Source: Escherichia coli (GTDB lineage Bacteria > Pseudomonadota > Gammaproteobacteria > Enterobacterales > Enterobacteriaceae). From it: a stretch of 670 nucleotides of DNA. A program made the translations under genes and the position numbers. The notes under the pieces were generated by a model. The model made no database searches. It had not been told where the DNA came from and was given only the letters and a program-made list of their open reading frames with translations. Location: NCBI RefSeq assembly GCF_003334385.1, contig NZ_QOWN01000154.1; one strand, given 5' to 3'. This document shows, one piece after another, positions 1 to 670 of the stretch (the stretch's first letter is position 1; each line of letters opens with the position of its first letter).

Positions 1-1
1 A

Positions 2-295
2 TACTCGAGGGAATTAGCCGATGCGAGAGCTGAAAATGAAACTCTGCGCGCTGACGTTGCCGCTGGTCGTAAGCGCCTGCGGGTCAACGCCACCTGCCCC
101 GGTACCGTGCGTGAAGCCACCGGCACCTCCGGCGTGGATAATGCAACCGGCCCCCGACTGGCAGACACCGCTGAACGGGATTATTTCACTCTCAGAGAGC
201 GGTTGATGCTGATGCAGAAGCAGCTGGAAGGGGCGCAGGAATATATCCGCACTCAGTGCACTAAGCTGGCTTTTTATTATCCGGAGGATATATGA
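2..295 (+). CDS. Rz: Rz i-spanin (inner-membrane spanin subunit), C-terminal portion; 5' end lies upstream of the window
   Basis: Frame 2 is open from position 2 to TGA at 293-295. My translation is YSRELADARAENETLRADVAAGRKRLRVNATCPGTVREATGTSGVDNATGPRLADTAERDYFTLRERLMLMQKQLEGAQEYIRTQCTKLAFYYPEDI. From memory this aligns closely with the C-terminal half of lambda Rz (...KELADAKAENDALRDDVAAGRRRLHIKAVCQSVREATTASGVDNAASPRLADTAERDYFTLRERLITMQKQLEGTQKYINEQCR), including both periplasmic Cys positions. The track ORF 107..295 is only the internal-Met part of this frame. Confidence 0.9.
   Translation, partial: YSRELADARAENETLRADVAAGRKRLRVNATCPGTVREATGTSGVDNATGPRLADTAERDYFTLRERLMLMQKQLEGAQEYIRTQCTKLAFYYPEDI
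7..11 (+). promoter_or_regulatory. Shine-Dalgarno-like GAGGG for Rz1, located inside the Rz coding sequence
   Basis: GAGGG lies 9 nt upstream of ATG at 21. This spacing fits translation initiation of the embedded gene. Confidence 0.5.
21..206 (+). CDS. Rz1: Rz1 o-spanin, outer-membrane lipoprotein, embedded in the +1 frame of Rz
   Basis: Track ORF MRELKMKLCALTLPLVVSACGSTPPAPVPCVKPPAPPAWIMQPAPDWQTPLNGIISLSESG (61 aa). From memory it resembles lambda Rz1 (MLKLKMMLCVMMLPLVVVGCTSKQSVSQCVKPPPPPAWIMQPPPDWQTPLNGIISPSERG). It has a hydrophobic signal peptide, a lipobox V-S-A-C with Cys at codon 20 (nt 78-80), Gly at +2 (no inner-membrane retention Asp), and a proline-rich mature part with a conserved internal Cys (PVPC). 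A GAGGG Shine-Dalgarno at 7-11 lies 9 nt upstream of ATG 21. The true start could instead be ATG 36 (MKLCAL...). Confidence 0.86.
   Translation: MRELKMKLCALTLPLVVSACGSTPPAPVPCVKPPAPPAWIMQPAPDWQTPLNGIISLSESG
274..282. repeat. Left copy of an exact 9-bp direct repeat TTATTATCC
   Basis: An identical 9-mer recurs at 523-531. This copy lies immediately 5' of the SD of the small ORF, within the 3' tail of Rz. Confidence 0.35.
283..288 (+). promoter_or_regulatory. Shine-Dalgarno GGAGGA for the downstream small ORF, inside the last codons of Rz
   Basis: GGAGGA at 283-288 is followed by ATG at 292, a short 3-4 nt spacing. ATG 292-294 overlaps the Rz stop TGA 293-295 (ATGA), a typical translational-coupling arrangement. 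Confidence 0.5.
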
Positions 296-516
296 AGAAA
301 TTACGGGTAACCGTAGAACCTTTTCAGGGAACAATTCCGTTCCGTATTTTGCAGCGTGGTCGTGTTCTTGTTGAAGGTTCGTTCAGTGGTAAATGTACGC
401 AATTACACTCCCGGACCTTTCAGGTGAATGCCACGAATGAAGAGCTAACCGTTGAGTGTACGATGAATGCCGCTAAATGCCGCATGGTATCCGCTGCATT
501 ACAGCCAGTGTGTTGA
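292..516 (+). CDS. Hypothetical small protein (74 aa), no family recognised; candidate moron or accessory gene downstream of the lysis cassette
   Basis: Track ORF MKKLRVTVEPFQGTIPFRILQRGRVLVEGSFSGKCTQLHSRTFQVNATNEELTVECTMNAAKCRMVSAALQPVC, ATG to TGA, with SD GGAGGA upstream and ATGA overlap with Rz. By my manual counts GC is about 45-48% in 301-480, against roughly 68-70% in 61-180 and about 60% in 541-600. It has no signal peptide or hydrophobic segment, and four Cys that do not form a CxxC motif. Alternating hydrophobic and polar residues near the N-terminus suggest beta strands. Confidence 0.5.
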   Translation: MKKLRVTVEPFQGTIPFRILQRGRVLVEGSFSGKCTQLHSRTFQVNATNEELTVECTMNAAKCRMVSAALQPVC

Positions 517-522
517 GCGACC

Positions 523-531
523 TTATTATCC
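523..531. repeat. Right copy of an exact 9-bp direct repeat TTATTATCC
   Basis: Identical to 274-282. It starts 7 nt after the TGA stop of the small ORF at 514-516. Confidence 0.35.
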
Positions 532-642
532 ATGCGCGGTATTGTCGCCGTATTCCTGCATTAACAGAGACCGCAGCCCGACCGGGAGACTCCTCTGCGC
601 GAGTGTGCGGGGATAATCAAAAACGATACACACCGGGGTTTA

Positions 643-661
643 CCGCGTTAACGGAGCGCGG
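643..661. other. Short inverted repeat (CCGCG-N9-CGCGG) containing the palindrome CGTTAACG; possible weak hairpin
   Basis: CCGCG at 643-647 pairs with CGCGG at 657-661, and the loop contains the palindromic octamer CGTTAACG at 646-653. No U-run follows (GCGTTGTCCC), so it is not a convincing intrinsic terminator. Confidence 0.2.
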
Positions 662-670
662 CGTTGTCCC

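Follow-up and report, generated by a model that had tools for sequence, protein, structure and literature searches.

The window analysed here, the whole 670-nucleotide (nt) stretch of Escherichia coli DNA on contig NZ_QOWN01000154.1 (assembly GCF_003334385.1), holds the distal two thirds of a phage spanin locus: the 3' part of Rz, the gene for an inner-membrane spanin (i-spanin), and, inside it in another frame, the complete gene for its outer-membrane lipoprotein partner (o-spanin), Rz1. It is almost certainly a lambda-type embedded two-component spanin locus of a lambdoid prophage. A sequence-only reading of the window had come to the same identification and had called the arrangement canonical rather than novel; it is indeed a known system in a well-sampled lineage, and only the end of Rz and an inserted small neighbouring gene depart from the textbook lambda case. 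The features of the pair itself are as follows.

2..295, plus strand: 3' part of Rz, codons 68-164 and the TGA stop (open frame, RefSeq coding sequence, PF03245, PHROG 13, identity to lambda)
7..12, plus strand: purine-rich, Shine-Dalgarno-like GAGGGA upstream of the Rz1 ATG (read from the sequence, aligned with lambda DNA)
21..206, plus strand: Rz1, a 61-residue outer-membrane lipoprotein precursor with an ATG start (open reading frame list, PF06085, PHROG 3198, identity to lambda)
21..77, plus strand: predicted Rz1 signal peptide, residues 1-19 (lipoprotein pattern, hydropathy)
69..80, plus strand: Rz1 lipobox V-S-A-C (PROSITE-type pattern, lambda alignment)
95..97, plus strand: Rz Cys99 (TGC), at the same position as lambda Rz C99
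108..110, plus strand: Rz1 Cys30, by alignment the equivalent of lambda Rz1 Cys29, which forms a homodimer disulfide (PMC5295617)
117..131, plus strand: Rz1 proline stretch PPAPP, by alignment the equivalent of the lambda penta-proline at 32-36
257..259, plus strand: Rz Cys153 (TGC), the equivalent of lambda Rz C152 and the end of the conserved Rz sequence

The frame that starts at base 2 is open up to the TGA at 293..295, as the sequence-only reading had it, but 2..295 is only the end of the gene. The full Rz is 495 nt long, encodes 164 amino acids (aa) and begins 200 nt before the window does; it occupies positions 3801..4295 of L001, our label for the locus of E. coli SW070917, where RefSeq names the product 'lysis protein'. 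Its assignment is secure by several routes. The protein matches Pfam PF03245 (Phage_lysis) at 8e-50, with positions 1-125 of the 126-position model aligned, and PHROG 13 ('Rz-like spanin') at 3.1e-77 over the full profile, 1-154 of 154; BLASTP gives 67% identity to lambda Rz (E=4e-75). The exact 164-aa sequence is already in public collections. NCBIfam returned nothing above its cut-off for Rz, Rz1 or the 74-aa open reading frame that follows Rz (ORF74), Rz having sub-threshold matches to LysB and MreC, and a PDB sequence search with Rz found no close relative with a solved structure, only insignificant tropomyosin matches (E=0.07).

Residues 4-22 of Rz, VLCVVIIVMLVACGVLSLG, have a mean Kyte-Doolittle value of 2.97 over 19 aa and are helical in an AlphaFold2 (AF2) model. 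This hydrophobic segment is encoded at L001 3801-3872, so the window does not include the N-terminal membrane helix. It fits a single N-terminal transmembrane helix, for which a type II inner-membrane topology is predicted. In the AF2 model, for which 13 alleles were used, residues 2-95 and 119-159 are helical; the linker between them, at 96-118, has a predicted local distance difference test score (pLDDT) below 50, and the tail at 155-164 is of low confidence. This helix-linker-helix course agrees with the map of lambda Rz, in which the transmembrane domain covers residues 1-24 and two coiled coils, CC1 and CC2, cover 27-87 and 121-150 on either side of the linker (PMC5295617). Rz is thus modelled as an N-terminal membrane helix, a long periplasmic helix, a flexible linker rich in Ala, Thr and Gly, and a second helix ending at Cys153. 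The columns of the two cysteines noted in the sequence-only reading, Cys99 and Cys153, are invariant in the 13 aligned alleles.

Rz1 is identified with equal clarity. It matches PF06085 ('Lipoprotein Rz1 precursor') at 4.3e-21, residues 20-60 aligning with model positions 1-40 of 41, and PHROG 3198 at 1.6e-30; BLASTP against lambda Rz1 gives 67% identity (E=4e-25). The exact 61-aa protein is also present in public collections, where GenBank entries call it 'hypothetical protein' while other members of its 90% cluster bear the name 'Rz1 family lipoprotein'. Upstream of its ATG, the GAGGGA at 7..12 aligns with the AAGGAG stretch that precedes lambda Rz1 and may act as the ribosome-binding site.

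The N-terminus of Rz1, MRELKMKLCALTLPLVVSAC, follows the PROSITE-type rule for lipoproteins, with the cysteine at residue 20 and Lys or Arg within the first seven residues. The n-region carries R2, K5 and K7 and is followed by a hydrophobic core with a mean Kyte-Doolittle value of 2.2 over residues 8-19. The segment ALTLPLVVSAC matches {DERK}(6)-[LIVMFWSTAG](2)-[LIVMFYSTAGCQ]-[AGS]-C, none of the six residues before the four-residue lipobox region being charged, and VSAC fits the published lipobox consensus [LVI][ASTVI][GAS]C (PMC6139136). Cys20, encoded at 78..80, stands at the same position as in lambda Rz1, and the PF06085 match begins exactly there. On this pattern, cleavage by signal peptidase II and lipidation at Cys20 are predicted. 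The residue at +2, Gly21, is not Asp. Under the Lol sorting rule a lipidated protein without Asp at +2 goes to the outer membrane, and because of Gly21 mature Rz1 should be sorted there. Of the other cysteines, Cys9 falls in the signal peptide and Cys30 in the mature protein, a Pro-rich peptide with 11 prolines among its 42 residues.

Lambda Rz1 has been dissected by mutation. Lysis-defective missense changes in lambda Rz1 fall at P32, P33, P35, P36, I39, W46, L50 and I54, and P34 is the sole position of the proline stretch that tolerates Ala (PMC5295617). All eight sensitive positions are conserved in the Rz1 of the window, and the Ala of PPAPP falls exactly at the tolerant one.

The embedded architecture that the sequence-only reading had described holds on the full gene. 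Rz1 occupies nt 221-406 of the 495 nt of Rz, in phase +1 and wholly inside it. In about 70% of embedded pairs the o-spanin starts at 0.4-0.5 and ends at 0.9-1 of the length (L) of the i-spanin gene (PMC6139136). Here Rz1 starts at 0.45 L, within the usual range, and ends at 0.82 L, just below the modal one (0.87 L on the 155-aa alleles described below, as in lambda). The overlap leaves its mark on base composition, which had also been proposed: the G+C fraction is 0.69 in 60..180, compared with 0.47-0.52 in 1..59, 181..295 and 296..670 and with 0.54 for the whole window, and all 12 CCN proline codons of the Rz1 frame lie within 60..170. The arrangement is modular. The Rz1 signal peptide is encoded opposite the end of the first Rz helix, and the Rz linker (about 86-154 of the window), which reads ATCPGTVREATGTSGVDNATGP in the Rz frame, shares its DNA with the mutation-sensitive, Pro-rich core of Rz1, so that this core is encoded opposite an unstructured part of Rz.

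The length of an open frame is of little value as evidence for an embedded gene. When the Rz protein was held fixed and its synonymous codons were redrawn by local codon usage in 20,000 trials, an ATG-initiated open frame of at least 61 aa appeared in the +1 frame in 5814 of them (29%), and length was rejected as an argument for Rz1 on this account. A lipoprotein signal appeared in only 70 trials (0.35%). What exceeds chance is therefore the lipoprotein signal, together with the family matches and the pattern of variation among alleles.

That pattern was drawn from 82 loci, namely 80 from IMG/VR with L001, L002 (the locus of enteropathogenic E. coli E2348/69) and lambda, less one incomplete locus, which yield 40 distinct Rz DNA sequences. 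A +1 frame of 60-61 aa with an intact lipobox is present in all 40. The variable sites of Rz, counted by codon position outside and inside the overlap, are distributed as follows.

Rz codon position 1: 33 of 92 sites variable outside the overlap, 22 of 62 inside (Fisher p=1.0)
Rz codon position 2: 30 of 92 outside, 14 of 62 inside (Fisher p=0.21)
Rz codon position 3: 65 of 92 outside, 19 of 62 inside (Fisher p=1.3e-6)

Within the overlap, variation is suppressed at the Rz wobble position alone, which coincides with the middle base of the Rz1 codons; after the Rz1 stop it recovers (13 of 19 sites). Suppression is strongest over Rz1 residues 31-61, where this middle base varies less than the other two, with 0.12 changes per site; over the signal peptide and the N-terminal linker it is weak. 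Purifying selection acts on both frames, and the suppressed wobble position in the overlap marks dual coding. A modular trade-off of this kind has been described for the lambda spanin overlap (PMC5295617), and the pattern seen here fits it.

The lambda locus (NC_001416, Rz at 45966..46427 and Rz1 at 46186..46368) is the prototype of the embedded two-component spanin, and the likeness to it is close. The two products belong to the same Pfam families as their lambda counterparts, with the same 67% identity for each; in either locus Rz1 begins in the +1 frame at nt 221 of Rz, and the DNAs are colinear through the overlap. The lipobox cysteine at residue 20 is kept, as are the Rz cysteine pair (99 and 152/153), the Rz1 cysteine (29/30), the Pro-rich core of Rz1 and its AWIMQP..DWQTPLNGIIS segment. 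In lambda, Rz C99 and C152 and Rz1 C29 form homodimer disulfides (PMC5295617). In both phages the pair is the last of the lysis cassette.

The differences are of detail. Rz has 164 aa rather than the 153 of lambda, with one extra residue in the linker, a different residue after the last cysteine and a nine-codon read-through tail. Rz1 has 61 aa rather than 60, the lipobox is VSAC in place of VVGC, and the proline stretch is PPAPP in place of PPPPP. In L001 an antirepressor gene and small open reading frames (ORFs) separate R and Rz. The next gene after Rz differs too: here it is a 74-aa ORF on the strand of Rz, in lambda it is bor on the other strand. Rz E150 and Rz1 R59, which form a salt bridge in lambda, are replaced by Thr and by Ser or Asn, respectively, in all 39 non-lambda alleles (251..253 and 198..200 of the window); this joint loss of charge comprises two states and one paired event, and as evidence of co-variation it is weak.

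The genomic context agrees with the identification. The window is identical over its full length to positions 1857542-1858211 of the SW070917 chromosome. There the gene order is a class II holin, a YdfR pseudogene, a lysozyme, a KilAC antirepressor, three tiny ORFs, Rz and the 74-aa hypothetical gene, with an HNH endonuclease, the small and large terminase subunits and the major capsid protein further downstream. E2348/69 has the same layout of holin, lysozyme and Rz, then terminase. Among 5426 complete E. coli genomes, 4532 match the window DNA in whole or in part, and 1180 carry at least 80% of it, a match that extends across the ORF74 cassette and covers the 164-aa form of Rz and the 155-aa form with ORF74 alike. 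Phage records matching the window number 408, at 90-97% identity, mostly of Shiga toxin (Stx)-converting phages. The locus is the end of the holin-lysozyme-Rz lysis cassette of a lambdoid, Stx-phage-like E. coli prophage, and the main use of the Rz/Rz1 pair is as an annotation anchor that fixes the window at this place.

A side observation concerns the gap between endolysin and Rz, which in L001 is about 1.4 kb (L001 1854..3801, upstream of the window). It contains the KilAC antirepressor gene and three annotated ORFs of 43, 51 and 28 aa; in E2348/69 the antirepressor is absent and the small ORFs are kept.

By analogy with lambda, the inner membrane would be the seat of Rz and the outer membrane that of lipidated Rz1 (PMC5295617, PMC6139136). 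Translation in the +1 frame of the Rz DNA, starting at the ATG of Rz1, would yield a 61-aa precursor; after cleavage and lipidation at Cys20, Rz1 would be sorted to the outer membrane. Each protein would form a disulfide-linked homodimer, and the C-terminal parts of the two would bind across the periplasm. Once holin and endolysin had removed the murein, the spanin complex would collapse and fuse the inner and outer membranes, and with this fusion the last barrier would fall and lysis would be completed. The window copy is expected to be lipidated, to form the complex, to fuse membranes and to be active in the same way.

The one unusual feature of Rz itself is its end, which runs past the conserved sequence and into DNA that lies between genes in related alleles. 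Three features are needed to describe it.

260..531, plus strand: 272-bp cassette with the 74-aa ORF (pairwise alignment with the allele L046)
266..295, plus strand: read-through extension of Rz, L156-I164 and the TGA (junction comparison with sister alleles)
292..516, plus strand: ORF74, a Cys-containing frame of 74 aa (ORF list; RefSeq 'hypothetical protein' WP_000736383.1)

Among the 40 distinct alleles Rz has 155 aa in 22 and 164 aa in 17; the lambda protein has 153. The 164-aa form is found at 34 of the 82 loci. The 155-aa alleles, from related E. coli prophages and Stx-converting phages (L046, L039 and L059 among them), are 84-99% identical over Rz, their Rz1 is the same or differs at a few of the 61 positions, and their flanks correspond to 1..259 and 532..670 of the window; their Rz stops two codons after Cys153, unlike that of the window. 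Of the 47 loci with a 155-aa Rz, 36 are without the 272-bp cassette. In the 11 that have it, Rz ends, with no read-through, at a TAG 24 nt before ORF74: the junction reads CAGTGT ATT AAC TAG, then comes a 24-nt spacer containing GGAG, then ATGAAG. In the window it reads CAGTGC ACT AAG CTG and continues into the same spacer, with no change of length. The CTG at 266..268 stands where the sister alleles have TAG; with the length unchanged, this means that the Rz stop was lost and that the frame reads through the spacer to a new TGA, which overlaps the ATG of the next ORF as ATGA at 292..295. The nine added residues, LAFYYPEDI, vary equally across the three codon positions and have pLDDT below 50 in the model. 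The last nine codons of Rz are thus a lineage-specific read-through and not conserved Rz sequence.

Some points weigh against an intact, working spanin pair. The AF2 model shows Rz as a monomer, with moderate confidence (mean pLDDT 62.5), and does not prove a coiled coil. Cleavage of Rz1 by signal peptidase II is judged from pattern and homology and so stays a prediction. The embedded Rz1 has no RefSeq (PGAP) annotation in either of the two genomes examined for annotation, where it would lie at L001 4021..4206 and L002 3021..3206 (21..206 of the window), an omission worth recording in its own right. Rz carries nine residues beyond the usual 155 aa, which are probably tolerated, and in L001 the gene beside the holin, of the YdfR family, is a pseudogene, a sign that part of the prophage may have decayed. 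The missing annotation, with the 29% of recodings that give a long enough frame, would suit the notion that 21..206 is a chance open frame inside a genuine Rz from which no protein is made. This notion is effectively refuted: the frame matches PF06085 and PHROG 3198, shares two thirds of its residues with an experimentally studied protein, carries a lipoprotein signal that few recodings reproduce and is intact in every distinct allele, and Rz wobble variation is suppressed only where the frames overlap. A second gene, instead of Rz1 or besides it, might also be sought on the other strand, at 14..334, where an antisense ORF of 106 aa, longer than any other complete ORF on the list for the window, is open in 38 of the 39 non-lambda alleles and matches phrog_17757 (function unknown) at 3.6e-46. 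It shares its codon register with Rz, however, and a stop in it would need TTA, CTA or TCA in Rz; the frame is open because these codons are rare there. Where the antisense ORF overlaps Rz without Rz1 (Rz nt 407-462), the third positions of Rz, which are the first positions of the antisense codons, vary at those same 13 of 19 sites, with 1.0 changes per site. This equals the variability of ordinary Rz sequence and so indicates no constraint from the antisense frame. The antisense ORF was rejected as a gene on this pattern and is very improbable as one; phrog_17757 has probably been assembled from antisense ORFs over-called across Rz.

With Rz and Rz1 as the genes of the locus, there is still the question of what the stop-codon loss has done to them. 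The pair could be intact in sequence yet impaired in function, either because the extension of Rz disturbs its C-terminal contact with Rz1 or because the prophage is cryptic. The tail is encoded by what is intergenic spacer in the sister alleles and lacks any codon-position bias, the cassette contains the YdfR pseudogene, and lambda Rz residues 143-152 are sensitive to mutation and, when truncated, to length, only truncations of this end having been tested (PMC5295617). Yet both frames are still intact, the 164-aa form is widespread among the alleles and loci, the 1180 genomes with at least 80% of the window include it together with the 155-aa form with ORF74, and a survey of spanins found the last 0.1 L of i-spanins to be variable and dispensable for complex formation (PMC6139136). 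Impairment is accordingly judged unlikely. The opposite suggestion, that the stop-loss allele is adaptive rather than a product of neutral drift, is improbable; on this reading the ATGA might couple translation of ORF74, a moron-like, small, Cys-rich protein, to that of the spanin, and the tail might modulate spanin activity as well. As a working lambda-type spanin, the Rz of the window would show in nature that an i-spanin can bear lengthening at its C-terminus through loss of a stop codon, and the comparison of alleles is a clean, small illustration of dual-coding constraint. Both leave the current understanding of spanins unchanged.

ORF74 is a neighbouring gene and not part of the spanin. 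The cassette that carries it replaces 18 bp of L046-type alleles directly after the Cys153 codon of Rz, and the flanks, 1..259 and 532..670, are nearly identical. By direct string search TTATTATCC occurs twice in the cassette, at 274..282 and 523..531. A simple target-site duplication was considered for its origin and not adopted, the alleles without the cassette having no TTATTATCC at the junction. ORF74 is present at 45 of the 82 loci in two variants about 74% identical, and its variable sites number 13, 15 and 24 at codon positions 1, 2 and 3, a weak third-position excess. Its sole match is to PHROG 2571 (unknown function) at 2.7e-28, over positions 100-172 of a 291-position profile; Pfam, NCBIfam and PADLOC gave none, and no large-database protein search was made.

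A search of the window against Rfam at E up to 1 gave no match, a promoter scan of it gave no promoter-like site and a generic repeat search nothing meaningful. Two weak terminator-like hairpins were found by a terminator scan, both inside ORF74 and at about chance expectation. The remainder of the window, 532..670, is without an Rfam match or a promoter-like or terminator-like site. It is unannotated in both SW070917 and E2348/69 and holds only parts of short mechanical ORFs, at 467..616 on the plus strand and 526..633 on the minus strand. The stretch is conserved in alleles with and without ORF74.

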